Assembly (NCBI GenBank): GCA_964594735.1
Contig: CAZQMS010000004.1
Span: forward strand, 13,241 to 77,240
Length of the DNA: 64,000 bases
Source: an uncultured Candidatus Saccharibacteria bacterium
GTDB lineage: Bacteria > Patescibacteriota > Minisyncoccia > Phycocordibacterales > UBA2100
Reading direction: 5' to 3'
The notes under the pieces were generated by a model. It was not told the DNA's origin. It ran no database searches and worked only from the letters and a program-made list of their open reading frames with translations. The position numbers and the translations under genes were made by a program. Shown here piece after piece: positions 3,197 through 45,005 of the stretch; the first letter of the stretch is position 1, and each line of letters begins with the position of its first letter.

Positions 3197-3204
3197 CGCA
3201 GGAG

Positions 3205-3298
3205 TCTACCCCATGAGATAAGAACTCTCAAGAATGTGTGAACATCTCCGAACGTTCTATCTCACGGGGTCTACCCCATGAGATACGTACTCTCAAGG
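3205..3298. repeat. Family-B inverted repeats: CTACCCCATGAGATA (x2) and TATCTCACGGGGT, directly upstream of the tig start codon
   Basis: Seen in sequence. The same motif sits upstream of rnhA, the M50 protease and rpmB. Confidence 0.7.
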
Positions 3299-3323
3299 TG
3301 TGGCGCGCAGCGCGCTGGGCGAT

Positions 3324-3545
3324 TTAGGAATTGACTGAGTCGCCTGGGATGAAAGGGAGGGGTTGTGCGTCGGCTCTGTTGAGCTCGGCGCCCCAGAAGT
3401 AGAGCGCGCCCACCACAAGAAGCAGGACGATGATAAAGACACCGACGATGGGACCCGTCCCGCTGCGACGCTTGGGCGCTGCGTGCTCGGGAATCATGTG
3501 AGACGTGTCGCTCGACGGCGTTCCCGGCTGAGGAGTCGGAGGCAT
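3324..3545 (-). CDS. Small single-TM membrane protein
   Basis: ORF 3324..3674 trimmed to MPPTPQPG. Hydrophobic segment GVFIIVLLLVVGALYFW. Confidence 0.35.
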   Translation of the reverse strand: MPPTPQPGTPSSDTSHMIPEHAAPKRRSGTGPIVGVFIIVLLLVVGALYFWGAELNRADAQPLPFIPGDSVNS

Positions 3546-3787
3546 GTGTGTAGTGTACCCCGTAGTAGATGGTGGCGAAAGAAAATCTGTGCAGTGGATA
3601 ACTTCGATTTCGGTTGGAATTACTGAGAGCACGACTGACCCGACTTCTGCGCTGTGCGCATCGCCACCATTCACTACCGGGTGTACCGCGCAGAGTGCGC
3701 ACTACATAATCGCGCTCACCCTGTGGACAAGTGCAAATAGCACCGCCCGGCGTATGCCGGGCGGTGCGTGCGTTCATGATGACTTCT

Positions 3788-4099
3788 TTACAAGCTTGAA
3801 GCAGCCGCCTCGGCGTCTGCATTCATGTTGTTCTCGAATTCGGCCATGCTGGTGGCTTCGAGCTCGGCCTGAATCGATGCGGCGTCGTCGGAGCCGCCCG
3901 TCTGCGGCATCCATGACTCGCTGTCGACATCTGAGTACGTGCTCTCCATTGTGGCGCGCGAGCCGTCGGACATCTGCGAGAGGTAGATGCCTCCGAGGAT
4001 GAGAACGACAAGCACTGCCGCACCGACGAGGAGCGGTCCCGTGAGGGCTGAGCCTGGCTCCCGCGTAACTTGGTTTTCCTGATTCATCGTGGGTTCCAT
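3788..4099 (-). CDS. Small single-TM membrane protein, weak paralog of 3324..3545
   Basis: TM segment LLVGAAVLVVLILGGIY followed by an acidic C-terminus. Confidence 0.4.
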   Translation of the reverse strand: MEPTMNQENQVTREPGSALTGPLLVGAAVLVVLILGGIYLSQMSDGSRATMESTYSDVDSESWMPQTGGSDDAASIQAELEATSMAEFENNMNADAEAAASSL

Positions 4100-4109
4100 G
4101 GTGGCGAGA

Positions 4110-4871
4110 TTAGTTGCTAGTTTCTACTTCTGCACCGACTGTCGCAGTGGCGGAAAGCTGCGCGAGCGCGCGGGCCGTCGAGAGGAGGGCGCTGTGTGCG
4201 GCCTTGATGCTCGAGGTGACTTTCTGAATCGCCGCACGTACTTGTGCCTTGACCTCTTCTGCATTGCTCGATGCGTCTACCGACGCGACGAGGTCTTGGA
4301 GTGATTTGAGGTCTGCCTCCGTGGTCGCGACGAGCGAGACGGAGCTCGCTAGAGATGCCTCGACAGACGCTGTCGCGGCACCAGCCGCCTGAAGCTTGTC
4401 AATACGGCTTTCCATGCGCTCCACCAGGTTGTGGAACATGTTGATGGCGTTTTCGGAGCGTCGTATGGCGCCACCGATGTGCGAACGCAGGAGTGCTTCG
4501 ATGCGTTCCTTTATATTGCCGCGGATTTCCGCTGCCCGCTCGCGCCTCTCCTCGGCATTCTCCCGCATGTCGCGGATGATATTGCGATTTTCGCTCGATT
4601 TCGCTTCTCCTCGCATTTCTGCGCGGGTTTCGAGACGCTGCTCCACCATGCCGTCCCGGAGCTGCATGATGCGCATCTCTGCCTCCTCGCGCAGCTCGAT
4701 GAGCGGCTGCGGACGCGGTCCCGGCGGAAGTGGCCTCGATGTGGTGGCTCTGACCTGTACCGATACCTCGGCGCTTCCGGACACTTCCTGTGCGCTCGCG
4801 AAACTCCCGCCAAAGAGTCCGAGAGTGCCGGCCAGTCCTGCGACGAGGATTTTGCTAATGCTGACATTCAT
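4110..4871 (-). CDS. Secreted coiled-coil protein (signal peptide, Glu/Arg-rich helices)
   Basis: ORF 4110..4877 with signal peptide ILVAGLAGTLGLFGGSFASA. Confidence 0.5.
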   Translation of the reverse strand: MNVSISKILVAGLAGTLGLFGGSFASAQEVSGSAEVSVQVRATTSRPLPPGPRPQPLIELREEAEMRIMQLRDGMVEQRLETRAEMRGEAKSSENRNIIRDMRENAEERRERAAEIRGNIKERIEALLRSHIGGAIRRSENAINMFHNLVERMESRIDKLQAAGAATASVEASLASSVSLVATTEADLKSLQDLVASVDASSNAEEVKAQVRAAIQKVTSSIKAAHSALLSTARALAQLSATATVGAEVETSN

Positions 4872-4947
4872 ATACATAGGTTTCGCTATGAGTAATACCT
4901 GACGGTCATTGTACCGTCTCCATGAAGACGCACGAGCGGGCGGGGGA

Positions 4948-5535
4948 TTACTGTGTGAGCTTAGGCTTGTACTCTTTCTCGTATCGTTCCATCGATTCCT
5001 TAACTACATGCACAGCCTGCTCAGCAGAGAGGAATTCGTTGACCTGGCCGGTGCCCGGTTTTTTCAGTGCCTTGTAATTCTCCCAGTAATACTTCGCTTC
5101 TTTCTTGAAATACTCACCAAGGCTTTCCAGAGAAGTAATGTGCTCTACGCGCTTGTCATCTGCGAGTACGGCAATAATCTTGTCGTCGATTTCGCCACCA
5201 TCAACAAACTTCATGCCGCCGATAATGCGCGCTGCAACGTGAGCGCCGGGAACGAGGGGCTCGGTCACGCTCTCGATGACGATGTCGAGCATGTCGTTGT
5301 CGAGGTCCCACGTCTGCGGGATAGCTCCGTATGTGAAAGGATACGCGAGTGATGAATAGCCGACTCGGTCGAGTTTCAGGTGTCCGGTTTCATTCACGAG
5401 CTCGTACTTGTTGATAGTCCCTGCCGGTACCTCGACAATCGCGTTAAGAATTCCGCTCGCTTCGTCGGCGAATGTAGGTAACACATGCAAAAGATTAGGC
5501 ATGTACATCGTCGGTTTCAAATCAAGATTTGCCAT
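4948..5535 (-). CDS. ppa: Inorganic pyrophosphatase (family I)
   Basis: Family I PPase motifs (AIVEVPAGTINKYE, DGDPLDVL-like block). Start is ambiguous between 5535 and 5508. Confidence 0.85.
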   Translation of the reverse strand: MANLDLKPTMYMPNLLHVLPTFADEASGILNAIVEVPAGTINKYELVNETGHLKLDRVGYSSLAYPFTYGAIPQTWDLDNDMLDIVIESVTEPLVPGAHVAARIIGGMKFVDGGEIDDKIIAVLADDKRVEHITSLESLGEYFKKEAKYYWENYKALKKPGTGQVNEFLSAEQAVHVVKESMERYEKEYKPKLTQ

Positions 5536-5624
5536 AGTGATGCAAAGTGTAGCAGGCAAGCCCCTTTTGACAAGATTCAAGCGTCGGTGTTGGATGCGGG
5601 TAGCAATCAGCAACGGAGGAGCGT

Positions 5625-5963
5625 ATGAATACGCTTATCACGATGCATCCCGCGCTTGCGACCCACGCCGCTGTCATACTCGTAGGCATCTTCATCGGCA
5701 CCTACTCACCTCGCATCTGGGTGGGACCGCCACCTACGAGTGAGGACCTACGACTCTACAGCGTGGCGCTTAGCGTCTGCTGGCTGTACTCGCTCGGGGT
5801 TGTCGCCTCTATCGCCGAAGCGACCAACAGTCAGGTGTCGTGGCTCATGCTGCCGCTGCTCGTTCTCACCAATATTCTGTTCGGAATGTTTGGTGCGTTC
5901 ATCGGGGTCGCGATGGGTTACCTCGGCAGGCTGCTCATCTTTGTGCTTGCGCTCAGTCGGTAG
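5625..5963 (+). CDS. Small polytopic membrane protein
   Basis: GGAGGAG ribosome-binding site 6 nt upstream. Three hydrophobic segments. Confidence 0.5.
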   Translation: MNTLITMHPALATHAAVILVGIFIGTYSPRIWVGPPPTSEDLRLYSVALSVCWLYSLGVVASIAEATNSQVSWLMLPLLVLTNILFGMFGAFIGVAMGYLGRLLIFVLALSR

Positions 5964-6030
5964 TGAGAATGGCCTGCGCAAAAACCGGGCCCGCTTCTGC
6001 GGGCCCGGCTGAAACTTTTCTTGGGGACGC

Positions 6031-7362
6031 CTATGCAGCGTCTTTTTCTTTGCTTTCGTCTGTTTCTTCCTGCTCTTCCTCTACCTTCTCATCCGCAATG
6101 TCGCGGTCCTGCGCGACGGGCTCGAGATTTTCCTCTCCGTCGGCCTTATCCTCCGCAGCGATATCAGTCTTCGTCTCCTCGAAGGCATCTTCCTTGGCGC
6201 TTACATTCTCGACGTCGGTCGGTTGCGACTCCACCGGCGCGGCGCCGTCTTCAGAGACGACCTCGCCGCCCATCGAGCGGATGTCTATCTTCCAACCGGT
6301 GAGGCGTGCCGCGAGGCGGACGTTCTGGCCGCCGCGGCCGATGGCGAGCGACTGCTGGTCTTCCGCTACCTGCACGACAGCACGGTTTTCATTTTCGAAG
6401 AGTTCGATGCCGAGCACCTGCGCGGGCTTGAGCGCCTCCTTTACGTAGTCACCGGCATTCTCGCTCCACTCGACGACATCGATTTTCTCACCGCCGAGCT
6501 CCGAGGTCACGACTGCGACGCGTACGCCGCGTTGACCGACGAGCGCACCCACGGGGTCGATGTGGTCGTCGTTGGAAAAGACAGCAATCTTGGCGCGGCT
6601 GCCCGGCTCGCGGACGATACCTTTGACCTCCACGATTCCCTGTGCCATCTCGGGCACTTCTGTCTCAAACAGCTTCGTGAGGAATTTGGGGTGCGAGCGC
6701 GAGAGGCGGATGAATGTGCCGCGTACGCCTTCGTCGACGCGCAGGAGGAGTGCTCGCACGCGCTCGCCCTGGCGGTACCGCTCGCCGGGAATTTGTTCAT
6801 CGTAGGGGAGTATCGCGGTCGCGCGGCCGAGGTCGATGAAGAGATTGCCGCGTTCGAAGCGCTGCACGTGACCAGTGACGATTTCGCCTTCGCGCGCACC
6901 GTATTCCTGGATGATGCTCGCGCGCTCTGCTTCGCGGACTTTCTGCATGATGACCTGCTTGGCGGCCTGCGCGGCGATGCGTCCGAAGTCTTCCTGCGCC
7001 TCAAGCGGGAAGGAAATCTCTTCGTCGAGCTGCGCGTCGCGCTTTATGCGGCGGGCGTCCTCGAGCATGATGTGCTGCTCAGGATTGAAGCGTGAGCGGT
7101 GGTCGTCTTCGCCAGAGGTCTCCTCATCCTCGCGGCGCACGAGCGTGTCGTCGACGACGATTTTCGCCTGGCGGAATTCGAGGTCGCCCGTTTCTGGGTT
7201 GAAGGTCGAGCGGATGATTTGTCCGCGCTTGCCGTACTCGCGGCGGTACGCAGCGGCCAGCGCGGTCGCTATCGCGTCGATGACGCTGTCGCGCGAGATA
7301 CCGCGCTCTGCCTGGAGCTCATCGAGGGCTGAGTTGAGAGTTTTGAGGTCAAAGAGTGCCAT
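6031..7362 (-). CDS. nusA: Transcription termination/antitermination factor NusA with an acidic C-terminal tail
   Basis: S1 and KH domains (AIGRGGQNVRLAARLTGWKIDI). No rimP or infB neighbours. Confidence 0.9.
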   Translation of the reverse strand: MALFDLKTLNSALDELQAERGISRDSVIDAIATALAAAYRREYGKRGQIIRSTFNPETGDLEFRQAKIVVDDTLVRREDEETSGEDDHRSRFNPEQHIMLEDARRIKRDAQLDEEISFPLEAQEDFGRIAAQAAKQVIMQKVREAERASIIQEYGAREGEIVTGHVQRFERGNLFIDLGRATAILPYDEQIPGERYRQGERVRALLLRVDEGVRGTFIRLSRSHPKFLTKLFETEVPEMAQGIVEVKGIVREPGSRAKIAVFSNDDHIDPVGALVGQRGVRVAVVTSELGGEKIDVVEWSENAGDYVKEALKPAQVLGIELFENENRAVVQVAEDQQSLAIGRGGQNVRLAARLTGWKIDIRSMGGEVVSEDGAAPVESQPTDVENVSAKEDAFEETKTDIAAEDKADGEENLEPVAQDRDIADEKVEEEQEETDESKEKDAA

Positions 7363-7584
7363 ATGGATTATGTTGTATGAACGTCCTTTCTAAAAAAACG
7401 TCCGCCCCAAGGGCGGTACTAATGCGGGAATATTACATTCGACGATTGGCCAAGTCAAGTGCTGACTCGTAAGCCAACAGCGTGCACTTTTTATGCGATT
7501 ATCTCCTTCGCGAATGCTATATAATGAGTCCATCCGGTATGAGTTCCTCTGTTAACTGTCACCTGTAAACTGTCAGCTGTTTTT

Positions 7585-9318
7585 ATGTACATCTCCGACA
7601 CGCACCTCAAATCATTTCTTGCCGACGCGGGGCTTGTCTCGCAGAAAGATTTCGATGCGGCGGAGACTGAAGCCAAAGCGAGCGGGCAGCCTGTGGGCGA
7701 TATCCTCATCGCGAAGAGTGCGATAGGCGAAGACGAACTGCGTCGCACGTATGCGTACATCCTCGGCATTCCCTTCGTCTCGCTCATGGGGACCAACATA
7801 AAGTACGAGACGCTTAGCCTCATCCCCGAGCCCGTCGCGAGGCGCAACAACATCATCGCGTACAACCACCGTGGCGATGAACTAGAAGTCGCCATGCTCG
7901 ACACCGACGACCTCGCAGCGATCGACTTCATAAAGAAGAAGACGCACCTCAAGATTCTCCCGCGCCTCACCGATGCCGCATCGGTAAAACACGCCCTCAA
8001 GCTCTACCAGCAGTCGCTCAAGAATAATCTCGGCGACGTCATCAAGCAGGAGACAGAGGCGCTCGCGCTGCACTCGGCAGAAGCAAAAGATGAAAAGGAA
8101 ATGGCAGAAGGCGTCCCGGCTGTGCGCATCGTCGATACGCTCCTGCGCCATGCCAACGCGCAGGGCGCATCCGACATTCACATCGAGCCGCTCGAGGATT
8201 CGCTCCTCATCCGCTACCGCATCGACGGACTCCTCCACGATGCGATGGAATTGCCGAAACACGCTGCCGCAGCCATCACGGCGCGCATCAAGGTGCTCTC
8301 GAGCATGAAGCTCGATGAAAAGCGTCTGCCGCAAGACGGTCGCTTCGGCACGGAAAATGGCGGTGAGCGCGTTTCGTTCCGTGTATCGATACTCCCGACA
8401 TACTTTGGCGAGAAAATCGTGATGCGCTTGCTTCGCGATTCTATTTCCGGCTTCACGCTCGAGAGCATTGGTTTCCACGGGACAGGGCTCGAGCGCATGC
8501 ACGAAGCAATCCGCAAAACGACCGGCATGATTCTCACCACTGGTCCGACCGGGTCGGGTAAATCCACAACGCTCTACACACTCCTCGACCTCGTGAACAC
8601 GCCCGATGTGAATATCTCGACCGTCGAGGACCCCATTGAGTACCAGATGGCGCGTGTGAACCAGACGCAGGTACGGCCGGAAATCGGATTTACCTTTGCC
8701 AATGGTCTGCGCACACTGGTCCGCCAAGATCCGGACATCATCATGGTGGGCGAAATCCGCGATAAAGAGACAGCAGCGCTTGCGGTCAACGCTTCGCTCA
8801 CCGGCCACCTCGTCCTCTCGACACTCCACACCAACTCCGCCGCGGGCGCCATCGCGCGCCTCCTCGACATGGGCATCGAGCCGTTCCTTCTGGTATCGAC
8901 ATTGCGCGTGGTCATCGGTCAGCGCCTCGTGCGCCGCCTTGCGCCCGACAGGGAAGCGTATGACCTCTCGCGCGACGAGCAGGCGCAGCTTGAACGCATC
9001 GTCGATGCGGGCACGGTGCTCAAGACGCTCAAAGACGAAAAAGCAGTCAAAGCGGATGCGACGTGGAACAAAATCCCGTTCTACAAACCGAAAGAGGGCG
9101 GACAGACGCCGAGCGGCTACTCCGGGCGCGTAGGCATTTATGAAGTGATGCCTGTCACGAGCACCATCAAGGAGCTCATTATGAAAAATGCCACGGGCGA
9201 TGAGATAGAGGCGCAGGCGAAAAAGGAGGGCATGCTCACCATGAGCGAAGATGGCATTTTCCGAGCAGCACAAGGGATGACTACTATCGAAGAAGTGCTC
9301 CGGGTCGTCGCTGAATAA
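7585..9318 (+). CDS. pilB: Type IV pilus assembly ATPase PilB / GspE family
   Basis: Walker A motif GPTGSGKSTT, Asp box and His box. GspE N-terminal domain. No tetracysteine zinc motif. Confidence 0.9.
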   Translation: MYISDTHLKSFLADAGLVSQKDFDAAETEAKASGQPVGDILIAKSAIGEDELRRTYAYILGIPFVSLMGTNIKYETLSLIPEPVARRNNIIAYNHRGDELEVAMLDTDDLAAIDFIKKKTHLKILPRLTDAASVKHALKLYQQSLKNNLGDVIKQETEALALHSAEAKDEKEMAEGVPAVRIVDTLLRHANAQGASDIHIEPLEDSLLIRYRIDGLLHDAMELPKHAAAAITARIKVLSSMKLDEKRLPQDGRFGTENGGERVSFRVSILPTYFGEKIVMRLLRDSISGFTLESIGFHGTGLERMHEAIRKTTGMILTTGPTGSGKSTTLYTLLDLVNTPDVNISTVEDPIEYQMARVNQTQVRPEIGFTFANGLRTLVRQDPDIIMVGEIRDKETAALAVNASLTGHLVLSTLHTNSAAGAIARLLDMGIEPFLLVSTLRVVIGQRLVRRLAPDREAYDLSRDEQAQLERIVDAGTVLKTLKDEKAVKADATWNKIPFYKPKEGGQTPSGYSGRVGIYEVMPVTSTIKELIMKNATGDEIEAQAKKEGMLTMSEDGIFRAAQGMTTIEEVLRVVAE

Positions 9319-9352
9319 GTATCTAGTATTTTGTATGTAGTATTTGGTATGG
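9319..9352. repeat. GTAT-heptad repeat, left arm of hairpin element R1 (GTATCTA GTATTTT GTATGTA GTATTTG GTATGG)
   Basis: About 22 of 30 nt are complementary to the arm at 9755..9784. Confidence 0.7.
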
Positions 9353-9729
9353 AAGCTGCCAAGGCCACCATACGACACTTTACCGACTTGCATGCTTGGA
9401 AGAGCGCAAAGGCTCTCGTGATTTTCGTTTATACATCAACCCAAGCGTTTCCGGTGTCGGAGCAGTTTGGACTAACAAATCAGATGCGCAGGGCCGCGGT
9501 GTCAGTAGCCGCAAACATAGCTGAAGGATTCGCCCGCCGTACAGGCAAGGATAAGCGAGGCTTCTACCAAACAGCGCTCGCATCTCTAGCTGAACTCGAG
9601 AGTCATTTCCTCATTGCGCGTGAACTTAATTTTATTGACCAAAAAAGTTTGGACGAGTTGCGTGGGGCAATAAGTCAGAGCGGCAAACTTCTTACCGGGC
9701 TTATCCGATCTGCGTTGGACCGAACTTAA
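9349..9729 (+). CDS. Four-helix-bundle protein of the 23S rRNA intervening-sequence protein family. It is encoded inside the loop of hairpin R1.
   Basis: Family-typical sequence (HFTDLHAWKSAKALVIFVY...VAANIAEGFARRTGKDKRGFYQTALASLAELESHF). ATG at 9349. The ORF-track start at 9331 is a TTG. Confidence 0.75.
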   Translation: MEAAKATIRHFTDLHAWKSAKALVIFVYTSTQAFPVSEQFGLTNQMRRAAVSVAANIAEGFARRTGKDKRGFYQTALASLAELESHFLIARELNFIDQKSLDELRGAISQSGKLLTGLIRSALDRT

Positions 9730-9754
9730 TCCCCGTTTCTCGCTTCACCTGCAA

Positions 9755-9784
9755 GATACTAAATACGACATACCATATACTGAC
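9755..9784. repeat. ATAC-heptad repeat, right arm of hairpin element R1
   Basis: Complement of 9319..9352. pilC begins 6 nt downstream. Confidence 0.7.
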
Positions 9785-9789
9785 AGGTA

Positions 9790-11007: not shown

Positions 11008-11077
11008 AAGTATTTTGTATTTAGTATTTGGTATATCGCATGCATACAAGATACGAAATACGAGATACTAGATACTG
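11008..11077. repeat. Hairpin element R2. GTAT heptads x4 are followed directly by ATAC heptads x5. The right arm contains the ATG at 11040.
   Basis: Seen in sequence. The arms are complementary. Confidence 0.7.
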
Positions 11078-13393: not shown

Positions 13394-13398
13394 ATAAA

Positions 13399-13499
13399 AG
13401 TATGTGGTATGTAGTATCTAGTATGTTGTCTAGAAGAGAGCGGCGTTCAGCGCGATGCCGGTGCCATACCATATACCGTGTACCAAATACCAAATACTG
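13399..13499. repeat. Hairpin element R3. GTAT heptads at 13399-13428, a 37-nt loop, and ATAC heptads at 13466-13499.
   Basis: Seen in sequence. Confidence 0.7.
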
Positions 13500-16983: not shown

Positions 16984-17045
16984 GAGGATATAGACTCTCG
17001 CGTCTAGAGAGTACCCAGGGCAGACAGGGGTACAATATACATACT

Positions 17046-19087: not shown

Positions 19088-19093
19088 AGGGAT

Positions 19094-19172
19094 GTGTATG
19101 TTGTATCTAGTATGCCGTACGTAGTATGAAAATTGCGTACAAAATACCAGATACCACATACTATATACTACG
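19094..19172. repeat. Hairpin element R4 (GTAT/GTAC heptads then ATAC heptads) in the divergent HIT/recJ intergenic region
   Basis: Seen in sequence. Confidence 0.65.
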
Positions 19173-19176
19173 CGGG

Positions 19177-20832
19177 ATGGGACTTTCTGAGCTCGTACAG
19201 ACACTCCTCAAAAAGCGCGGTATCGAAGACACCGCCGCATTCCTCTCTCCCGACTATGAGCTCCACACGCATTCGCACGCACTTTTTGCAGACATGGAAG
19301 CGGCAGTTTCGCGCGTGCTCGCAGCAGTAGAGAAAGGTGAACGCATCGCTATCTACGCGGATTTTGATTGCGACGGTATTCCTGGCGCCGCACTTCTCTC
19401 TGACGTGTTTCAGAAAATCGGGTACGGAAACTACGAAATATACATACCGCATCGCGACAAAGAGGGCTACGGCCTGCATACAGATGCTATCGATGCGCTG
19501 CGAGAGAGGGGTGTGACGCTCATGATAACGGTCGATGTGGGTACGACAGCGGTAGACGCTGTTGCCTACGCGTCGGAGCGCGGTATCGACACGATTGTGA
19601 CGGACCACCACGAGCTTGGCGCGGAGCTTCCGCGCGCTGTTGCAGTTCTCAATCCGAAGCGAGAGCCCTACCCGTACCCACATTTGTGCGGTGCCGGGGT
19701 CGCGTTCAAGTTTGCGCAGGCACTCATCGAAGCGGGCAAGAAGCGTGGCGTAGCGGGATTCGCGCCTGTTGCTCCAGGGTGGGAAAAGTGGCTCCTCGAT
19801 CTCGTAGCAATCGCCACGGTGGCGGATATGGTCCCACTCATCGGCGAGAATCGCGTGCTTGCGCACTGGGGACTCACCGTGCTCCGTAAGTCGCCGCGGC
19901 CGGGCATTACAGCGCTTCTCTCGCAGCTCCGCATGCGGAAAGCGGAACTCACCGAAGAGGATATTGGATTTTCCATCGCGCCGCGCATCAATGCCGCGTC
20001 GCGTATGGACAATCCTGACCTTGCGCTGAAACTCCTCACGGCCAAAGACCCGAAAGAAGCAGAAGAGATTGCGGCGAGCCTCGAGAAACTCAATGCGTCG
20101 CGCAAGGGTGTTGTCGCGGGAATCGTGCGCGAAGCAAAAAAGCGAACGCGCGCGCGGTTCCAGCCGGGCGAAGTTGTCGTGCTCGGCGACCCTGAGTGGA
20201 AGCCGGCACTCCTTGGTCTCGCTGCAAATTCAATCATGGGTGATCGCGGTGGTGTCGTGTGCCTGTGGGGACGCGATGCGCTCGGTCGCATCAAGGGCTC
20301 GTGCCGTTCCGACGGGGAAATGTCCGTCGTCGAACTTCTCACCGGCGCGGGGGATGCCTTTACGGAATCGGGCGGGCACGCTGCGTCGGGAGGATTCACT
20401 GTTGCGGAGGGGGCAGTGCACACGCTCCCGGAGAGGCTTGCGAGTGTCGCGCAGAATCTCGTGCGCAAGACGGCCGCGGAGGTGGCGCGTGAGGATGCAT
20501 CCATAGCGCTCCGCGAGGTTTCGTTCGCGCTTCTGCGTGACATCTCACAGCTCGCGCCGTTTGGTATTGGCAACCCGAAGCCCCTGTTTCGTATACGCCG
20601 CGTTCGCGTCTGCGAAGTGCGCCGCTTCGGCAAAGAAAAGAACCACGTCGAGGTGACGCTCGCGTGTCGGGAGACCTCTGCGACTGCGCGCGGATTTGAT
20701 TTTTTCCGAGCCCCTGAGGATTTTACTTATGCACCCGTACCGCAGGCTGAGGCATCGGTGCTTGCGACGGTGGAGCGCGATACGTACCGCGGCGGCCTCG
20801 CGCTCAGGCTTGTCGATATCCTTCCCGCCTAG
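19177..20832 (+). CDS. recJ: Single-stranded-DNA-specific exonuclease RecJ
   Basis: DHH motifs (DFDCDGI, VTDHH) and a DHHA1 domain. ORF-track start 19126 reads through repeat R4. Confidence 0.85.
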   Translation: MGLSELVQTLLKKRGIEDTAAFLSPDYELHTHSHALFADMEAAVSRVLAAVEKGERIAIYADFDCDGIPGAALLSDVFQKIGYGNYEIYIPHRDKEGYGLHTDAIDALRERGVTLMITVDVGTTAVDAVAYASERGIDTIVTDHHELGAELPRAVAVLNPKREPYPYPHLCGAGVAFKFAQALIEAGKKRGVAGFAPVAPGWEKWLLDLVAIATVADMVPLIGENRVLAHWGLTVLRKSPRPGITALLSQLRMRKAELTEEDIGFSIAPRINAASRMDNPDLALKLLTAKDPKEAEEIAASLEKLNASRKGVVAGIVREAKKRTRARFQPGEVVVLGDPEWKPALLGLAANSIMGDRGGVVCLWGRDALGRIKGSCRSDGEMSVVELLTGAGDAFTESGGHAASGGFTVAEGAVHTLPERLASVAQNLVRKTAAEVAREDASIALREVSFALLRDISQLAPFGIGNPKPLFRIRRVRVCEVRRFGKEKNHVEVTLACRETSATARGFDFFRAPEDFTYAPVPQAEASVLATVERDTYRGGLALRLVDILPA

Positions 20833-20833
20833 G

Positions 20834-20940
20834 CTATACCCCGTGAGATAGACTCGCCAATCTTAGATCAATAGAATGAAAACTGCTGATTCTTTGTTTA
20901 TGTAAATCGGAGTGCGTATTATCTCATGGGGTATACTCGC
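20834..20940. repeat. Family-B inverted repeat pair: TATACCCCGTGAGATAGACTC ... TATTATCTCATGGGGTATACTCGC
   Basis: Seen in sequence. The second arm ends 3 nt before the rnhA ATG. Confidence 0.7.
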
Positions 20941-20943
20941 TGC

Positions 20944-21651
20944 ATGTCCCGCATCATTATTTTCTGCGACGGCGCATCGAAGGGCAATCCTGGACCCGGC
21001 GGATGGGGTGCGCTCGTCGCGACAGAGACGCACGTCGAAGAGCTCGGTGGCGCTGAGGCGCAGACGACCAATAATCGCATGGAACTGAAGGCCGCATTCG
21101 AGGCACTCGCAAAAGCAAAAGATTTTGGCGCGGAGACCGTCGATGTGTACGCAGACTCGCAGTATGTGATTGGCGGTACGACGGCGTGGGGGAAAGGATG
21201 GCAGCGCAACGGCTGGATTACTTCTACGAAGCAGCCCGTCCTCAATCGCGACCTGTGGGAGCCGCTCCTCGAGCTGCTCGATTCTATGGATTCAAAAATT
21301 AGTTGGCACAACGTCGGCGGCCATGTCGGCGTCGGGGGGAACGAACGTGTTGACGAAATCGCATCTGGGTTTGCGACGAATGATGCGCCTCCTCTCTACT
21401 CAGGCGCACGAAGTGAGTACCCCATTGATCTCACGAATATCGAGGTTGACGCATCGCTCCAAAAAAAGAAATCCGAATCCCGCAATCGTTCCAAGGCGAA
21501 AGCCTACTCCTACGTGAGCGAAGTCGAGGGGAAAGTCGAGGTCCACAAGACGTGGGCTGAATGCGAAGCTCGCGTCCGGGGCAGAAAAGCACGGTTCAAA
21601 AAAGCGCTCACGCAGGAAGACGAGACCAGTATCGTGCACAGTTTTTCATAG
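20944..21651 (+). CDS. rnhA: Ribonuclease HI with a C-terminal Cauli_VI-like hybrid-binding extension
   Basis: RNase H motifs (DGASKGNPGPGGWG, TNNRMEL, HVGVGGNERVD). C-terminal YSYVSEVEGKVEVHKTWAECEARV..FKK. Confidence 0.85.
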   Translation: MSRIIIFCDGASKGNPGPGGWGALVATETHVEELGGAEAQTTNNRMELKAAFEALAKAKDFGAETVDVYADSQYVIGGTTAWGKGWQRNGWITSTKQPVLNRDLWEPLLELLDSMDSKISWHNVGGHVGVGGNERVDEIASGFATNDAPPLYSGARSEYPIDLTNIEVDASLQKKKSESRNRSKAKAYSYVSEVEGKVEVHKTWAECEARVRGRKARFKKALTQEDETSIVHSFS

Positions 21652-21764
21652 TGGCTTTTATTGCAACTTTCCACAGTAGGTGTACCGTAAATTGTGGAAT
21701 GCTCGTTTCAGCTAGCTAAAGGCGGGTATTCCATCGTTGCAACGAAACAGGAGCTCGTACGAAC

Positions 21765-22205
21765 ATGTGCGACTATAGCCTCGAGAATGTTGTCTCGCGT
21801 CCGGCCGTGGCGGCCGACCGTCTCGTGACGACGTCGTTTCCGCGCACTGTCTCCCGCGGCTTCGCTGATGGAGCCAAAGGTGTCGATAAGACCGTGGCGG
21901 TCTGCTTGCGTCCTGGCACGGAAATCGCGTTTGACTCACCGCCGGTCTTTGAGCACCCGGTGACGTACCAGGAGGTCGTCGCGCCCGGCAAGGTCGCGCG
22001 CTTTGCGCAGGTGGACATGCACATCAGGCACAAGCATCACGACACGCTCGTCTTCGCTGACGGCACCTTCGTTCCGGTCACCCGTCTCGTCGTGGGGCAG
22101 TACGCGACCGTGCTGCAGTTGCCGAGCGTGCGGCTGCACGAACGCGCGCACACGGCCGGCGAAGAGAACTCTGGTGCTCCGGCGCGCGAGCTCAAGAACG
22201 CCTGA
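21765..22205 (+). CDS. Hypothetical protein (begins MCDYSLE)
   Basis: AGGAG ribosome-binding site. Consistent codon usage. Confidence 0.5.
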   Translation: MCDYSLENVVSRPAVAADRLVTTSFPRTVSRGFADGAKGVDKTVAVCLRPGTEIAFDSPPVFEHPVTYQEVVAPGKVARFAQVDMHIRHKHHDTLVFADGTFVPVTRLVVGQYATVLQLPSVRLHERAHTAGEENSGAPARELKNA

Positions 22206-22281
22206 ACGACACGGCTAGTGCTCACAACGAACGACCCTCGGGACTCCGGCCCCGAGGGTTTTCTTTTGATACGCTTTCAGT

Positions 22282-23775
22282 ATGTCCGGCAAGATTGTCT
22301 GGGCGGTGTGCGCGGGGATTCTTCTTGGGGTCCTCTTTCGCTCGTTCGTCCCACTTTCGTGGCCATTAGCAGCGTTTCTCGCGCTCGCCGGCGTGTTCGT
22401 GCTCGGGTTCTCCACTCTCGACAGGCGGAGTGTCTACGCTCTCATCGGTATCGGCTGCATCGCTTTTGCGGGCGGAATGCTCCGGATGGACGCGGCGCGA
22501 CTCGTGCACGACCCGGCCTTGTACGAGAGGCTTGATAAGGATGTCGTTTTAATCGGGAAAGTCGTGGCGGAACCCGACGTGCGAGAGAAAAGCGTCAGGC
22601 TGCGCGTGCGTGCAAGCGATATGATTTATCATAACGCCACGACTTCTGTTGATGCCGGCGTGCTCGTCGTCGCACCACTTCACTCCGAAGTTGCATACGG
22701 TGACACTGTCCGCGCGGAGGGGAGACTACGGCTTCCCGAGGCGTTCGATACAGGTTCCGGACGGGTCTTCGACTACCCGATGTTCCTCGCGAAAGACGGC
22801 GTGCTCTACGAGCTCGCGTTTGCGGAAATCGAAGTGCTCGAAACTGGGGGCGGCAATGTGGTGAAGAAGGCTGCGCTCGCCATCAAACAGCTCTATCTCA
22901 CCGGTCTCAAGCGCACTTTGCCCGAGCCCGCTGCGGGACTCGCGGGTGGCATCACGGTGGGCGACAAGCGTTCTATAGGTGAAGAACTCTCGCAGGCGTT
23001 TATCAATGTCTCGCTCATCCACATCGTCGTCCTCTCCGGCTACAACATGACCGTGGTTATCAACGCGGCGGCGCGCCTCCTCACGTATGTTCCTCGAGTG
23101 CCGCGCCATGCACCCTTTGCCGTAAGCGGAATTATCGTCTTGCTCTTTGTGCTTATGACAGGTGGTGCGGCGAGTGCGACGCGTGCAGGTGCGATGGCGC
23201 TTATCGCGACGTACGCGCGGCTTTCAGGGCGCTCGTTTCTCGCGCTACGCGTGCTCGCAGCTGTCGCGGCGGCGATGGCACTGTGGAATCCATTTATCGT
23301 CGCGTTCGACCCCGGATTCCAGCTTTCCATACTCGCGACGGCAGGACTCATTCTCTTTACGCCACTCATAGCTCCGTACCTGCCGTTCATATCGGAGCGG
23401 TGGGGACTGCGTGAGATAGCCGCCTCCACAATCGGCACTCAAATTGCAGTACTCCCGCTTCTCCTGTATCAAAACGGACTCCTCAGCATCGCTGCTGTCC
23501 CCGCGAACTTACTCACGCTCATCATCGTCCCGTCGGCGATGCTTTTCTCTTTCTTCGCGTCGCTCGCGGGACTACTCCTCGGAAACTTCGGGACCATAGT
23601 GGCACTCCCGGCGCTTGCGCTGCTCTCCTACATCATCAAAGTTGCTGAAATTCTCTCTGCAATTCCGTATGCATCTGTCACCGTCCCCGCATTCGGCGTC
23701 TGGCTCATGGTTCTCATGTATGTATTGCTTGCCGTCGCGTACGCCTGGCTACAAAAGAAAACACCCCAGGGATGA
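22282..23775 (+). CDS. comEC: DNA internalization competence protein ComEC/Rec2, channel part (DUF4131 + Competence domain). No fused MBL domain.
   Basis: Polytopic membrane protein with the ComEC signature LIHIVVLSGYNM. Confidence 0.8.
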   Translation: MSGKIVWAVCAGILLGVLFRSFVPLSWPLAAFLALAGVFVLGFSTLDRRSVYALIGIGCIAFAGGMLRMDAARLVHDPALYERLDKDVVLIGKVVAEPDVREKSVRLRVRASDMIYHNATTSVDAGVLVVAPLHSEVAYGDTVRAEGRLRLPEAFDTGSGRVFDYPMFLAKDGVLYELAFAEIEVLETGGGNVVKKAALAIKQLYLTGLKRTLPEPAAGLAGGITVGDKRSIGEELSQAFINVSLIHIVVLSGYNMTVVINAAARLLTYVPRVPRHAPFAVSGIIVLLFVLMTGGAASATRAGAMALIATYARLSGRSFLALRVLAAVAAAMALWNPFIVAFDPGFQLSILATAGLILFTPLIAPYLPFISERWGLREIAASTIGTQIAVLPLLLYQNGLLSIAAVPANLLTLIIVPSAMLFSFFASLAGLLLGNFGTIVALPALALLSYIIKVAEILSAIPYASVTVPAFGVWLMVLMYVLLAVAYAWLQKKTPQG

Positions 23776-23862
23776 ACCCTGGGGTTTCCGGTCGAGATGT
23801 ACCTCGACCAAGGTGCTTAACGAAACGTGCGAGTCGGCCTTACGCGCGCCGACGCGCAGCCG

Positions 23863-24249
23863 CTACTGCTGATCCCGGCGCGGCTGATCGGAGCCGACGT
23901 GGCCGGTCGCTTGCGCCGCCACGGTCTGGTCGGCGGTCGCGGTGCCGGCGCCGTTCTGCTGCTGCTTGGCGAGGTCGGCCTGCTGCTGCAGCGCGAGAAG
24001 GTCGTTCTTGAACCAGTCGTCCTTGGTCACACCGAGCTGAGTGCCCTTCGTGATGAACGCGGACTCAATCTCCTTGTGGTTCTGCGGAATCTTGATGGCC
24101 GGCAGCTCGTCGTCGCCGCGGAACATCTTGCCGACGAACTGGAGGGCGTTGACGGACGTGATCGTCGCGATCATGGCCGGCAGGCCGGAGTGCAGAGCGG
24201 TCGTGGCAATCAACGCGGTCTTGGCGGTCGAAGTGGTGGACGGTGTCAC
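23863..24249 (-). CDS. Hypothetical protein in a compositionally anomalous (GC about 66%, strong GC3) segment. GTG start with an AAGAGGAGA ribosome-binding site.
   Basis: Strong ribosome-binding site 7 nt upstream of the GTG. The segment 23776-24390 has an actinobacterial-type codon bias. Confidence 0.5.
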   Translation of the reverse strand: MTPSTTSTAKTALIATTALHSGLPAMIATITSVNALQFVGKMFRGDDELPAIKIPQNHKEIESAFITKGTQLGVTKDDWFKNDLLALQQQADLAKQQQNGAGTATADQTVAAQATGHVGSDQPRRDQQ

Positions 24250-24387
24250 GTGACAGTCTCCTCTTGGGGTTCAACCAAGGCCCTAGCGGCCATGGCTGCG
24301 CGGGACAGTACCAGCGGGCGGCGGGGGTGTCAAATGCAGACGGCGCCCCAAGGAGGGGCGCCGTCTGAAGAACCAAGAGAGGCAGAA

Positions 24388-24825
24388 TTACATTACCGGT
24401 GCAGGAGCAGAGGAGCCGCGGCCTTTCCACCAGCCGATGAGTGCCGCCGGAATCAGCCAGTAGCCGAGGAGGACGACAGTCGATGCGCTGAGGAGGAACG
24501 GACCGAAGTTGGGGATGACTGCCATCATCTGCGCGAGCGAGCCGGTCTGCGTGAGCACGCCGGCGACGCCAGAGATGAAGGCGACAGCGAGCGAGAGCAC
24601 AAAACCGATGGCGCCGAATATCACGCCAGTTTTGAGGTCGCGCACGCCGTACCACATCGCGAGGAGCGCGACGACGATAGCGGAGAGAACGACAAACGAG
24701 ATGTACTGCGGCGTGAGCATGCCGGGCGTAGCGCTGGGCGGGATGAGCGCGATTATCGCCGCGACTACCGTGTTGGTGAGGTAGTTGCCGAGAAACGTGA
24801 TAAGGATTGCCTTTTGGTAATTCAT
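24388..24825 (-). CDS. Polytopic membrane protein
   Basis: Four hydrophobic segments. Confidence 0.5.
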   Translation of the reverse strand: MNYQKAILITFLGNYLTNTVVAAIIALIPPSATPGMLTPQYISFVVLSAIVVALLAMWYGVRDLKTGVIFGAIGFVLSLAVAFISGVAGVLTQTGSLAQMMAVIPNFGPFLLSASTVVLLGYWLIPAALIGWWKGRGSSAPAPVM

Positions 24826-24857
24826 AGTAAGCACTAAATGCTAATACCTAAAGGATA

Positions 24858-25457
24858 TCACGCATTTGCAGCCTCAAAGCGCTTTTCCACTACCTCCCAG
24901 TTGAGGTTCTTGAAGAACGCATCTATATATTGTGTCTTTCCCGCAGGCAGCGCCCCGTAGTCGAGGATGTATGAATGCTCCCACACGTCGAGGGCGAGGA
25001 TGATGGGGAGGGTGGCGAAGTGCCCTTGGTGCTGTTCGCCAATGAAGCCGCCGAGGAAGCTTCCGATTTCTTTATCCCAATAGAGCATCGCCCAGCCCGG
25101 ACCGCGCATTTTCGCTATCGCCGTGAGGTACCTGAGGAGGTGCTCCGGCGCCCCGAAGTCTTTGCACACCGCATCGTAAAAAGCACCACTCGAGGGCATG
25201 GGGGATGCGCCACCCTCGAATTGTGGAAAGTAGTGCTCATGCAATCGCATGCCGTCGAACTCAAAAGAGCGTCGACGTATGATTTCCGATAGTGCATGCG
25301 CGTGCTTCTCGCTGTCTTTCGCGTATTCACCGATGAGTGAGGTGAGTGTGTTGAAGTTCTTCACATACCCCTCGTAGAGCCCGATGTGCTCCTCGACCGA
25401 TTTTCTAGATATGCCCTCCAGTTCGGGGATATTGAATGTCTTTGGCGTGTATTCCAT
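24858..25457 (-). CDS. Fe/Mn superoxide dismutase
   Basis: SOD motifs (HH..HH, D.WEHAYY-like DVWEHSYI). Confidence 0.9.
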   Translation of the reverse strand: MEYTPKTFNIPELEGISRKSVEEHIGLYEGYVKNFNTLTSLIGEYAKDSEKHAHALSEIIRRRSFEFDGMRLHEHYFPQFEGGASPMPSSGAFYDAVCKDFGAPEHLLRYLTAIAKMRGPGWAMLYWDKEIGSFLGGFIGEQHQGHFATLPIILALDVWEHSYILDYGALPAGKTQYIDAFFKNLNWEVVEKRFEAANA

Positions 25458-25501
25458 ATCGCTCAATATAGCACCGCGCACGGTGAAGCTAGAATGTACG
25501 C

Positions 25502-26356
25502 ATGCAGGCCTCGTCGCGCATCCTCGCTATGGTGCTCGTTCTGCTCCTCCTCGTTTTGGGCAGCATTGCGTATGCGGTAGCGGCGGAGGACCGGCGCGGG
25601 CTGCTCACCGTCTCCTTTCTCGACGTGGGGCAAGGCGACGCGATTTTTATCGACGCGCCGTCTGGGAGACAAGTACTCATCGACGGCGGCGCGAGTGCGC
25701 AGGTACTGCGCGAGCTTGCACGCGTGAGCCCCTGGTACGACAGAAGCATCGATGTCATCATCGCGACGCACCCAGATGCCGACCACATCGGCGGGCTTAT
25801 CGACGTCCTCGAGCGCTACGAGGTGGACACGATTGTGCGCTCGAGCGTACATGGCGATACCGCGCTCGCGGAGACGTTTGATAGTCTCGCCACTTCTGGC
25901 CGATATGAGACTTTTTTCGCAGAGCGCGGACAGACAATCGACCTCGGCGGCGGAGCACGCCTCGAGATTCTCTTTCCAGACCGTCCCGTCCCCGGGATTG
26001 AGCCCAATGTGGGGTGCGTCGTCGCGCGGCTGACGTATGGCGAGACGGCATTCATGCTGCCGTGCGATGCGCCCGACGAGATAGAGCTCTATCTCGCGCG
26101 TCTTGGTGCCGAGCATCTTAGAGCCGATGTGCTGAAGGCTGCGCACCATGGCTCGAAGACTTCTTCCGCTCCCGCTTTTGTCGGCGCTGTCGCACCTGCG
26201 TACGCGGTGTTCTCGCGCGGATGCGACAACAGCTACGGTCATCCGCATCCGGAAGTCGTCGAGACGTACGCGCGCTTCGAAATCCCCACGCTCGACACCT
26301 GCGAAGAGGGGACAATTACTTTTGTGAGCGATGGACAAACGGTGTCGCTTCGGTAG
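25502..26356 (+). CDS. ComEC-type metallo-beta-lactamase domain protein (stand-alone C-terminal domain of ComEC)
   Basis: MBL motif HPDADHIGG. Typical ComEC C-terminal signature KAAHHGSKTSS. N-terminal TM anchor. Confidence 0.8.
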   Translation: MQASSRILAMVLVLLLLVLGSIAYAVAAEDRRGLLTVSFLDVGQGDAIFIDAPSGRQVLIDGGASAQVLRELARVSPWYDRSIDVIIATHPDADHIGGLIDVLERYEVDTIVRSSVHGDTALAETFDSLATSGRYETFFAERGQTIDLGGGARLEILFPDRPVPGIEPNVGCVVARLTYGETAFMLPCDAPDEIELYLARLGAEHLRADVLKAAHHGSKTSSAPAFVGAVAPAYAVFSRGCDNSYGHPHPEVVETYARFEIPTLDTCEEGTITFVSDGQTVSLR

Positions 26357-26404
26357 TGTTACGTAAGCACGCGGATTGCGTGTATCAACCCGCAAGGAGG
26401 CCGA

Positions 26405-26551
26405 ATGAAAAGATTTTTCATCGCGCTCGCCAAATTCATCGGGTACGGTGGGGCAAAGTCGCTCCTCGACCCGGCGCGCGTCGAAGGGGACGATTCCGCG
26501 GGGGCGAGGGCCCTCGTCATCGAAGGCAAGCGGAAAAACTTTGTTTTCTAA
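26405..26551 (+). CDS. Small protein (48 aa), not in the ORF track
   Basis: AAGGAGG ribosome-binding site 5 nt upstream of the ATG at 26405. Translates MKRFFIALAKFIGYGG... Confidence 0.35.
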   Translation: MKRFFIALAKFIGYGGAKSLLDPARVEGDDSAGARALVIEGKRKNFVF

Positions 26552-26571
26552 AGCATTCGCTGATCCACGCA

Positions 26572-26600
26572 CGAAAAAGGCCGCCTTCCGGGCGGCCTTT
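26572..26600. terminator. Bidirectional intrinsic terminator (AAAAAGGCCGCCTTCCGGGCGGCCTTT)
   Basis: GC hairpin flanked by A and T runs, between the small ORF (+) and rpmB (-). Confidence 0.6.
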
Positions 26601-26639
26601 GACTTTCATGGATGAGAGAACGTTGCCGGTCGGTGCTTG

Positions 26640-26885
26640 TTAGGCGAGAATCCCCGCTTTCTTGAGCGTCTGGAATGCGCCTCGCTTTTTCATGGTCTTG
26701 AGGCCCTTGGCGGAGACGTGCACGGTGATTTTCTTGCCGAGCTCGGGGATGAAAAGCGTCTTTTTCTGGAGGTTGACCTGGCGGCGGCGCTTGCCAGTCG
26801 GGTTGAACTTGGTAGCACGAACACGGTTGGAGTAGCCGCCTCCGACCTGTGAGCTCTTGCCTGTGATGACACATTCTTTCGCCAT
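26640..26885 (-). CDS. rpmB: 50S ribosomal protein L28
   Basis: MAKECVITGKSSQVGGGYS. Confidence 0.85.
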   Translation of the reverse strand: MAKECVITGKSSQVGGGYSNRVRATKFNPTGKRRRQVNLQKKTLFIPELGKKITVHVSAKGLKTMKKRGAFQTLKKAGILA

Positions 26886-26943
26886 AGACGCCCGAACTGT
26901 ACCGCAGGGGGTGTATAAAGTCAAAAAATAGGGCGCAAAAGTG

Positions 26944-27017
26944 TATACCCCATGAGATACCCCACTCTAGATCCTGGCGATATATTCGAATCTCACTATC
27001 TCACGGGGTATACTGAT
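26944..27017. repeat. Family-B inverted repeat pair in the divergent rpmB/M50 intergenic region: TATACCCCATGAGATAC ... TATCTCACGGGGTATACT
   Basis: Seen in sequence. Each arm points towards one gene. Confidence 0.7.
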
Positions 27018-27022
27018 GCACT

Positions 27023-27649
27023 ATGGAATTCAGCGACACGATATTCCTCATCGTGGTTATCATATTCTCGGCCGTCATACACGAGGTGATGCACGGCGTT
27101 GCGGCAGATAAACTGGGCGACCCTACAGCGCGCTATGCGGGTCGGCTTACGCTCAACCCCATCCCGCACCTCGACCCCATCGGCTCTGTGCTCGTCCCGG
27201 TACTCCTCGCGTTCTCGGGTGCGTCCTTTTTCTTCGCCTGGGCGAAGCCAGTGCCGTACAATCCGTACAATCTTCGACCCGGTCGCTTTTCAGAAGCGAT
27301 CGTCGCATTTGCAGGACCACTCTCCAACCTCGTCATCGCGCTCGTCACGGGGCTCCTCATGCAGACCATAGCCTTCGCACCGGAGGTCACCGCAATCCTC
27401 TTCCTCATCGTCGCGGTCAACGTGATGCTCTTCCTCTTCAACCTCTTCCCTATACCGCCGCTCGATGGCTCCAAAATACTTTCTTCTCTTCTGCCTGGCG
27501 CCATCGGCCGCACCTACGATGGGTGGCGCGCACGCATGGAATACAACCCCTTCCTTGGCATGGGGCTCGTGCTCGTGGTCATTGTCGTCTTCGGCCAGGC
27601 GTTCGGCACGTTCGTCTTCGGGGTAGCGCGTCTCATCGCGGGAGTATAG
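27023..27649 (+). CDS. Peptidase M50 (site-2 protease-like) membrane metalloprotease
   Basis: HEVMHG zinc motif and the NLFPIPPLDG motif. Confidence 0.75.
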   Translation: MEFSDTIFLIVVIIFSAVIHEVMHGVAADKLGDPTARYAGRLTLNPIPHLDPIGSVLVPVLLAFSGASFFFAWAKPVPYNPYNLRPGRFSEAIVAFAGPLSNLVIALVTGLLMQTIAFAPEVTAILFLIVAVNVMLFLFNLFPIPPLDGSKILSSLLPGAIGRTYDGWRARMEYNPFLGMGLVLVVIVVFGQAFGTFVFGVARLIAGV

Positions 27650-44948: not shown

Positions 44949-45005
44949 ACCAGCGAGAATATCTCGAAGCGGCCGCGAACTTCGCGGCCGTTATTGCTTT
45001 TCCAT

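Follow-up and report, generated by a model that had tools for sequence, protein, structure and literature searches.

The closest described relatives of the element reported here, a paired promoter-linked motif in a 64,000-nucleotide stretch (hereafter the window) of contig CAZQMS010000004.1 from a bacterium deposited as uncultured Candidatus Saccharibacteria, come from rather different systems. In Deinococcus, the radiation/desiccation response motif (RDRM), the operator of the global repressor DdrO, is a dyad-type site of about 17 bp found clade-wide at the −10 region or start of mostly leaderless genes. KorA and KorB operators of IncP plasmids are near-invariant and recur throughout a compact replicon at many of its promoters; one class overlaps the −10 box, and others stand upstream at discrete distances. 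Among auxiliary operators such as lac O1/O2/O3 and gal OE/OI, two sites, one of them at the promoter, are bridged by protein, a strong site being usually combined with a weaker one. Correia elements, which are miniature inverted-repeat transposable elements (MITEs) of Neisseria, and REPIN doublets are inverted repeats starting with TATA that provide outward −10 boxes, fall into discrete classes and have hairpin potential. Finally, the −35-less extended −10 leaderless promoters of Actinobacteria and Deinococcus carry TANNNT 6–8 nt upstream of the start codon, lack a Shine-Dalgarno sequence and have a −35 box that is weak if present at all.

The motif in the window departs from each of these. 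While RDRM is a single symmetric palindrome serving a DNA-damage regulon, the motif, which is unrelated to it in sequence, is asymmetric, carries a −10 box in fixed register, occurs as inverted pairs at three distances and serves diverse housekeeping genes. Kor operators are plasmid-confined, symmetric 12–13-bp palindromes with known proteins, whereas the motif is chromosomal, clade-wide, an asymmetric 16 bp and would be bound by a putative factor. The lac and gal operators obey helical phasing, unlike the three distance classes of the motif, which are mutually out of phase and whose sites are inverted asymmetric 16-mers. Interiors of Correia and REPIN elements are conserved per genome and the elements are restricted to a genus or species, whereas the interiors of our pairs are unrelated and their arms identical in at least 63 species. 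Even the ordinary promoters of these genomes differ, since they show a weak tGC before the hexamer and the motif class has instead an invariant 12-nt block plus a partner site. A search of 8 million papers and preprints with exact motif strings and keywords found no description of the element, which seems to combine a promoter and a regulator-binding site in a way not described before.

Our principal conclusion, to which we give an even chance, is that the motif is a composite promoter-operator module of Kaiserbacteria-type Patescibacteria that is read by a putative clade-specific factor. A pattern search of the window with the 18-mer TATCTCAYGGGGTAKACT (up to two mismatches, against 100 shuffles) returned seven matches where 0.00 were expected, and the contexts that an earlier sequence-only reading had quoted for a motif recurring before the start codons of tig, rnhA and an M50 protease gene proved exact. 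Scored with a position weight matrix built from other genomes, the seven sites reach 27–32 bits; apart from them the 64 kb hold one site at 14 bits and nothing else above 8 bits, so that sites are all-or-none. A search with the inverse arm found the identical sites and one degenerate site at 51455, which had been taken for a chimeric copy inside island repeat 11 and is really a degenerate short-gap pair (51455–51487; 14 bits versus at least 27). The seven copies fall into three intergenic regions, those of tig, rnhA and the M50 protease gene, with an outward-facing inverted pair in each; the density is about one pair per 20 kb, every one intergenic. The identities of these genes and of recJ were checked with Pfam, using lists of open reading frames (ORFs).

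The motif is shared by many organisms of one phylum. Genomes (one per species) were scanned for exact TATCTCAYGGGGTAKAC, which gave at least 119 loci, and metagenomes gave at least 120 contigs carrying the motif, which we used as an independent replicate; all counts for the two sets are among the matches listed, and L numbers are locus labels. The 17-mer occurs in at least 112 loci from at least 63 Patescibacteria species-level assemblies, the carriers listed being Kaiserbacteria, Paceibacteria, "Nomura-" and "Campbellbacteria" and others. Seven of the 119 loci listed belong to unrelated bacteria and are single, unpaired and at chance level. Position, pairing and gap statistics are reproduced by the metagenome scan, and the shuffles together with the two independent collections rule out chance or artefact. 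Viral origin is ruled out as well, since the four matches in 2.9 million viral contigs, all single and unpaired, fit chance. Nor is the motif a DNA uptake sequence: with about one pair per 20 kb in the window, all intergenic and at a fixed place before starts, there is no high density and there are no in-gene copies. The window has 58% G+C and encodes a trigger factor without peptidyl-prolyl isomerase (PPIase) domain, the homologues of which carry the names Candidatus Kaiserbacteria or Paceibacterota. Third-party records of metagenome-assembled genomes (MAGs) named "uncultured Candidatus Saccharibacteria bacterium" (L007, L008, L013, L124 and many others) contain the Kaiserbacteria-type motif; because of this, and because the tig of CAZZHR01 is 87% identical to that of the window, the "Saccharibacteria" labels appear wrong. 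Typical short-gap pairs are also present on a 395-kb contig labelled Bryobacterales (L103, CAWCER010000013.1), which is possibly mis-binned Patescibacteria.

Comparison with ordinary genes shows that the last six bases of the motif are placed as a −10 box would be for leaderless transcription. The genome loci contain 253 core copies, 105 ending in TAKACT (TATACT or TAGACT) and 148 in other hexamers. An ORF start (at least 60 aa) lies 6–9 nt downstream in 72/105 TAKACT copies, at 6 nt in 38 of these, and the near starts of TAKACT copies are ATG in 77 of 85, whereas only 14/148 other copies have a start at 6–9 nt and show no peak. Near starts in the metagenome contigs follow 41/74 TAKACT and 6/64 other copies, and when both sets are pooled the hexamer and the start are separated by 6 nt in 55 cases, 7 nt in 33, 8 nt in 23 and 9 nt in 8. 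The placement 6–9 nt before starts claimed by the sequence-only reading is thereby borne out, and its proposal that TATACT or TAGACT is a −10 hexamer giving rise to leaderless mRNAs fits the geometry of genes that lack the motif. In these non-motif genes of the same loci, TANNNT peaks 6 nt before the start (80 versus a background of about 13); these genes also show a weak tGC "extended −10", lack a −35 box and are nearly devoid of Shine-Dalgarno signal. Similarly, 37 of the 68 predicted genes in the window carry TANNNT 5–9 nt (in most cases 6) upstream of an in-frame start and lack a Shine-Dalgarno sequence, which is also missing from the 6–9 nt between hexamer and ATG of motif promoters. Because ordinary genes share the TANNNT–6 nt–ATG arrangement, the motif most plausibly ends in the −10 box of leaderless mRNAs. 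The peak, the near lack of Shine-Dalgarno signal and a survey in which the anti-Shine-Dalgarno motif is missing from the 16S rRNA of a Parcubacteria subgroup (PMC9297842) together suggest that the clade is largely leaderless.

Other details concern where the element would act. A tRNA-Arg gene in L049 begins 9 nt after TAGACT, which means that the element acts at transcription and excludes a translational role. The −35 column is not conserved across motif copies; TTG stands at canonical spacing in 16% of promoter copies versus 3.5% in the background, which argues that the core occupies the −35/−10 spacer together with the upstream half of the −10 box. A leaderless promoter TTGTTA-17-TACAAT-6-ATG had also been proposed for tpiA, of which TACAAT-6-ATG stands and the −35 spacing does not (it is TTGTTA-4-TACAAT). 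The rnhA copy is a T variant of the motif, carrying an internal ATG (20926) in frame with the true start at 20944, so that ORF callers start rnhA six codons too early. The internal ATG is in frame whenever a T-variant copy stands 6 nt from its gene, and many MAGs probably contain such misannotated starts. That this internal ATG might itself be used in frame was rejected, the gap distribution being equal for C and T copies.

Pairing is the second defining property of the motif. With a partner defined as an inverted copy (up to two mismatches in 13) within 150 nt upstream of an exact copy, 123/157 copies (about 78%) are paired in the genome loci, versus 9/3000 shuffles (0.3%), and 107/136 in the metagenome contigs; in each pair the 5' ends are turned toward each other. 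The motif had been described as always paired with an inverted copy 35–60 nt further upstream. Inverted pairing is confirmed, but "always" goes too far and the distances are not as stated: the gaps in the window are 37, 69 and 37 nt, and in both sets the gap is trimodal, with classes of 6–14, 33–39 (mode 35) and 67–77 nt (mode 71–73). Modes of about 9, 35 and 72 nt correspond to centre-to-centre distances of about 25, 51 and 88 bp. Gap class shows no relation to gene arrangement. That the spacer is not conserved had been correctly noted: spacers contain no conserved column, the long ones hide no third copy (best internal matches, 3–7 mismatches), and among 87 compared all-against-all relatedness is confined to the CAYPGH01 arrays and one orthologous pair. 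No spacer inversion between orthologues was seen in this comparison. The CAYPGH01 arrays (L021, L056, L102) are built of a 101-nt unit, the 28-nt palindrome TATCTCACGGGGTAYACCCCATGAGATA plus a conserved 73-nt spacer, present as 2–3 tandem repeats on three contigs, and are the sole case resembling recent amplification. Palindromes of 28 nt are an alternative arrangement where the palindromic TATA is shared by two overlapping head-to-head copies, found at 3258–3285 of the window and in about nine loci listed. They support the existence of a separate binding site, because a functional hexamer is impossible in them.

The partners show that something other than the promoter is conserved. Partner conservation was measured on the copy opposite the ascertained one, which gives unbiased observations. 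Positions 1–16 (TATCTCAYGGGGTATA) are 91–100% conserved, while position 17 is C in 60% and position 18 is C in 45% and T in 37%; each site holds about 29 bits of information. Among paired non-TAKACT copies, 55 face a gene start and 64 a gene 3' end, often −19 to +30 nt of the stop codon. Those facing gene 3' ends keep the 16-mer at 91–96% per position and lose the final T of the hexamer. The 16-mer is therefore selected apart from a promoter role, since it is kept where no transcript is needed and the −10-type T is not. Within it, TATCTCATGGGGTA equals its own reverse complement at 10/14 positions, a number that rises to 12/14 in the variants TATCCC and TACCTC, and the asymmetry of the 16-mer is itself conserved. 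Position 8 behaves in an unusual way. One C and one T occur in 74/102 pairs in genomes and 58/82 in metagenomes, C/C is found in 26 and 23 cases, and T/T only once per set versus 14 and 11 expected. This heterotypy is independent of which copy is the promoter, and among unpaired copies 15 have C and 9 have T. The T form, with a CATG centre and a better dyad, may be the stronger site, and two strong sites may not be tolerated. RNA pairing at this position was considered and rejected, as there is no orientation preference (28 versus 23).

Comparison of orthologous promoters suggests how the element arose. In the orthologue sets that we compared (VirD4-like, four genomes; release factor, three genomes; DksA, PCD, DnaE and SLT), both arms are kept (identical in the VirD4, release factor, DksA, PCD and SLT sets) and the spacers are unalignable and saturated with substitutions; the partner is sometimes degenerate or absent. 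Sister-species loci were fetched through tig homologues and hence not chosen by motif. In these, tig and clpP are always preceded by TACACT or TAGACT, 6–9 nt and the start codon (ATG; GTG for L126 tig), whereas the 12-nt core is present in some lineages only, the sister-species orthologues keeping the −10 box without it. Because the −10 box is constant and the core lineage-restricted, the core is best seen as an add-on to pre-existing leaderless promoters. The window tig has the canonical core, L125 tig the variant TACCTCATGGGG, and L124 clpP a variant pair (TATCCCAYGGGG, gap 73) with the identical change in both arms. Both variants shift the site toward the perfect dyad TACCCCATGGGGTA.

A composite promoter-operator module would accommodate these observations as follows. 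TATACT or TAGACT would be an ordinary sigma-70-type −10 hexamer, from which RNA polymerase is predicted to start about 7 nt downstream, on or beside the A of the ATG, producing a leaderless mRNA (a tRNA in one relative). The 12 upstream bases and the first four of the hexamer (TATCTCAYGGGGTATA, about −24 to −9) would form the site of a putative DNA-binding protein, probably a dimer because the site has an internal imperfect dyad, TAYCYCA/YGRGRTA. Repressors classically sit in the spacer and on the upstream half of the −10 box. As the site covers both, the factor most likely gates, and probably represses, otherwise constitutive −35-less promoters. The inverted second site 6–14, 33–39 or 67–77 bp upstream may allow two bound units to bridge and so raise occupancy, and a roadblock to read-through from the upstream gene, or an insulator, is a possible side-function of the bound pair. 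The fixed register of core and −10 box needs no polymerase contact to the core, because the site itself contains TATAC and a single change, of position 18 to T, makes a promoter. The sequence-only reading had offered the −10 box and an inverted operator pair of a global regulator as alternatives. The core kept in partners at gene 3' ends and the sister-species −10 boxes without core favour the operator, and they support the view that the two proposals would be compatible rather than exclusive.

Several points weigh against this module. About 29 bits, all-or-none, is roughly twice the need of a transcription factor with about one site pair per 20 kb. Paired sites are not helically phased, and since the gap classes lie 2.5 and 3.5 helical turns apart, simple same-face looping cannot explain the gaps. 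Unpaired copies still have TATACT followed by ATG and look like working promoters. Moreover, no binding protein was found, the sole nearby candidate being a TrmB-family gene in L124 whose homologues in four other genomes are not motif-associated.

The competing explanations have to be judged on the same evidence. The whole 18-mer might be read by RNA polymerase, either through an alternative sigma factor or through the housekeeping sigma factor, in which a lineage-specific feature would contact −24 to −13 instead of −35, the pairs then being back-to-back divergent promoters. A core/−10 register constant in every copy, the lack of a general −35 signal and the sufficiency of unpaired copies all suit this idea; GGGTAT is similar to a SigB/SigF-type −10 box, and with a gap of 33–39 nt the start sites would be separated by about 83 bp, a distance at which two polymerases are packed about as closely as they can be. 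We nevertheless consider it unlikely, because partners at gene 3' ends keep the 16-mer and lose the T of position 18, head-to-head palindromes cannot initiate, and neither the C/T heterotypy nor the 6–14 and 67–77 nt classes would be explained. In addition, sister species run the same genes from a plain −10 box, non-motif promoters have the identical −10-to-ATG geometry, and a normal −35 TTG, which puts the core in the spacer, stands before 16% of copies. We give a little more credence, while still holding it doubtful, to a broader proposal in which −35 recognition is replaced throughout the Paceibacteria by a new factor with the 16-mer as its site; such a factor could be a novel sigma domain, a protein associated with the polymerase or a global gatekeeper. 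The quantised pairs would perhaps be organised by HU-type bends of about 36 bp into a nucleoprotein complex at about a tenth of transcription units, and "one C, one T" would denote an obligate strong/weak or heterodimeric pair of sites. HU genes are present in the loci fetched via tig homologues, and we speculate that one or two HU-type bends would suit units of about 36 bp.

Explanations that give the inverted arms priority over the promoter fare worse. A domesticated or mobile inverted-repeat element of MITE, Correia or REPIN type, whose TATA-ended repeats make outward −10 boxes, would account for terminal inverted repeats with TA/TATA termini, for discrete length classes, for the tandem CAYPGH01 unit and a 65-nt tandem duplication in the window, and for presence or absence varying among orthologous promoters. 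It is improbable all the same. Outside CAYPGH01 and one orthologous pair the 87 spacers are unrelated, and arms identical over at least 63 species with saturated spacers speak for selection in place rather than recent copying; the −10 box and ATG persist where the core is absent, which is not an insertion/empty-site pattern, no target-site duplication flanks the window copies, and no transposase appears to be linked to the element. Least probable, in our estimation, is that the arms are primarily a hairpin (RNA or extruded DNA) acting as terminator, insulator or processing site between co-directional genes, with a secondary promoter role. Pairs do fold into 13–18-bp stems (z = −2.8 to −6.1), most sit between a gene end and a gene start, short-gap pairs resemble classical hairpins, and a separate canonical terminator lies just upstream of only 8/121 non-promoter copies, although this is a weak test (8/121 versus 4/121). 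However, pairs lack a U-tract and are missed by a terminator scan that finds hairpin-plus-T terminators elsewhere in the genome, loops of 35–75 nt are atypical, and pairs lie between divergent genes too. Their arms are strictly conserved in sequence rather than covarying, about 40% of read-through transcripts would have A.C mismatched at position 8, and Rfam has no match. An intrinsic terminator as such is rejected because the arms run into ACT, N6 and ATG instead of a U-tract. Rfam 15 gave no gathering-threshold match in the window or 16 loci and no relevant one at E ≤1, and the reading as a small RNA or riboswitch was rejected on these grounds.

The genes downstream offer a view of what a factor acting on the proposed promoter-operator module might control. 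The 111 downstream proteins form 94 BLAST clusters, 53 of the proteins being covered by our Pfam scan. Among them are proteins of replication and repair (UvrC, RecG, DnaE, HolB/DnaX, RNase HI and HII, UDG, PD-(D/E)XK and GIY-YIG nucleases), translation (release factor, PheS, L25), transcription (DksA-type proteins), proteostasis and secretion (trigger factor, M50 and M16 peptidases, SecD, PilC, VirD4-like, PrgI), and metabolism and cell wall (enolase, Ddl, AdoHcy hydrolase), as well as many proteins of unknown function. An enrichment analysis had been proposed as a check; on these 53 proteins DNA repair and replication (9/53) are perhaps mildly enriched, and no single functional theme emerges. 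With 94 clusters among 111 proteins and such diverse functions, a global rather than a pathway-specific regulator fits. The published LexA motif of Patescibacteria is counted among the direct-repeat types in a cited source (PMC7739468). A LexA/SOS box was rejected, as the motif here is not a direct repeat and its gene set lacks recA and lexA and is mostly non-repair. No recurrent or enriched transcription factor was found among the 53 proteins scanned with Pfam. In L124 (15996–16960), a TrmB-family regulator gene is divergent from clpP, with the variant pair described above between them. The TrmB family is widespread, and 57–88% conserved in the clade. As the factor it was rejected because four homologues (L128–L131) have no nearby motif and no further copy occurs in about 1.1 Mb (the window and the loci to L127).

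The features of the window are collected in Table 1. Upstream of tig, a tandem duplication of about 65 nt that includes the −35-like TTGAGA has produced a more complex arrangement: the plus-strand copy at 3258–3275 is the inverted partner of the tig promoter copy (gap 37 nt), and the minus-strand copy at 3268–3285 is a tandem duplicate of the tig copy with its own TTGAGA at 3291–3296. The claim that one arm points at rpmB was mistaken, as this arm ends in TATACA, 53 nt from the ATG, and rpmB has its own promoter, TTGACT-17-TACAGT. No tRNA genes were found in the window.

Table 1. Motif copies and associated features in the window (window coordinates)
Feature	Position	Strand	Remarks
tig promoter copy TATCTCATGGGGTAGACT	3203..3220	-	TAGACT, 6 nt, then tig ATG 3196-3194
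−35-like TTGAGA of tig copy	3226..3231	-	17 nt 5' of TAGACT; 12-nt core fills the −35/−10 spacer
28-nt perfect-type palindrome TATCTCACGGGGTCTACCCCATGAGATA	3258..3285	both	+ copy 3258-3275 overlapping - copy 3268-3285
recJ-side partner copy TATCTCACGGGGTATAGC	20833..20850	-	abuts recJ stop codon 20830-20832; no gene downstream
rnhA pair spacer	20851..20919		69 nt, non-conserved, long gap class
rnhA promoter copy TATCTCATGGGGTATACT	20920..20937	+	TATACT, 6 nt, then ATG 20944
rpmB-side partner copy TATCTCATGGGGTATACA	26942..26959	-	ends TATACA; 53 nt from rpmB ATG (26888)
rpmB own sigma-70-type promoter TTGACT-17-TACAGT	26896..26924	-	context, outside motif
M50 pair spacer	26960..26996		37 nt, non-conserved, middle gap class
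M50 protease promoter copy TATCTCACGGGGTATACT	26997..27014	+	TATACT, 8 nt, then ATG 27023
Degenerate short-gap pair TATCCCGTGAGATG, 6 nt, TATCTAATGGGGC	51455..51487		14 bits; inside repeat-rich region

Other repeats occur in the window. A second promoter-linked repeat is present at 9311–9350, 11009–11076, 13399–13424 and 19088–19170. It consists of tandem 7-nt units (approximately RGTATNT on one side and ANATACY on the other) in inverted arrays, and the units run straight into a TATACT or TAGTAT hexamer 5–8 nt before the ATG. In recJ, the arrangement aaataccagataccacatacta TATACT acgcggg ATG suggests that the gene would start at 19177 and not at 19126. The degenerate pair lies within a repeat-rich region of lower GC content (43821–54472), where the unit AAAAAACGGCTTAA[TCCGCCAGCTGGCGGA]CCCCAAGAAATCAAAAGACCGCGGCG occurs in at least eight copies of 40–63 nt between short genes, terminator-like hairpins included.

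The significance of these findings lies in the organisms concerned, the uncultured, ultra-small Patescibacteria, for which almost nothing is known of transcription control and for which the element provides a specific handle. A 16-bp bait could capture the putative regulator. The motif also predicts transcription starts and true start codons, correcting the annotation of rnhA in the window and probably that of many MAGs, and it defines a candidate global regulon of replication, repair, translation, proteostasis and secretion genes. An unusual protein-DNA architecture is indicated by the quantised out-of-phase spacing, by C/T heterotypy and by the information content of each site, about 29 bits. 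If the doubtful proposal of a Paceibacteria-wide factor were true, the promoter architecture would lack any described counterpart, with the site of a regulator itself seeding new leaderless promoters.

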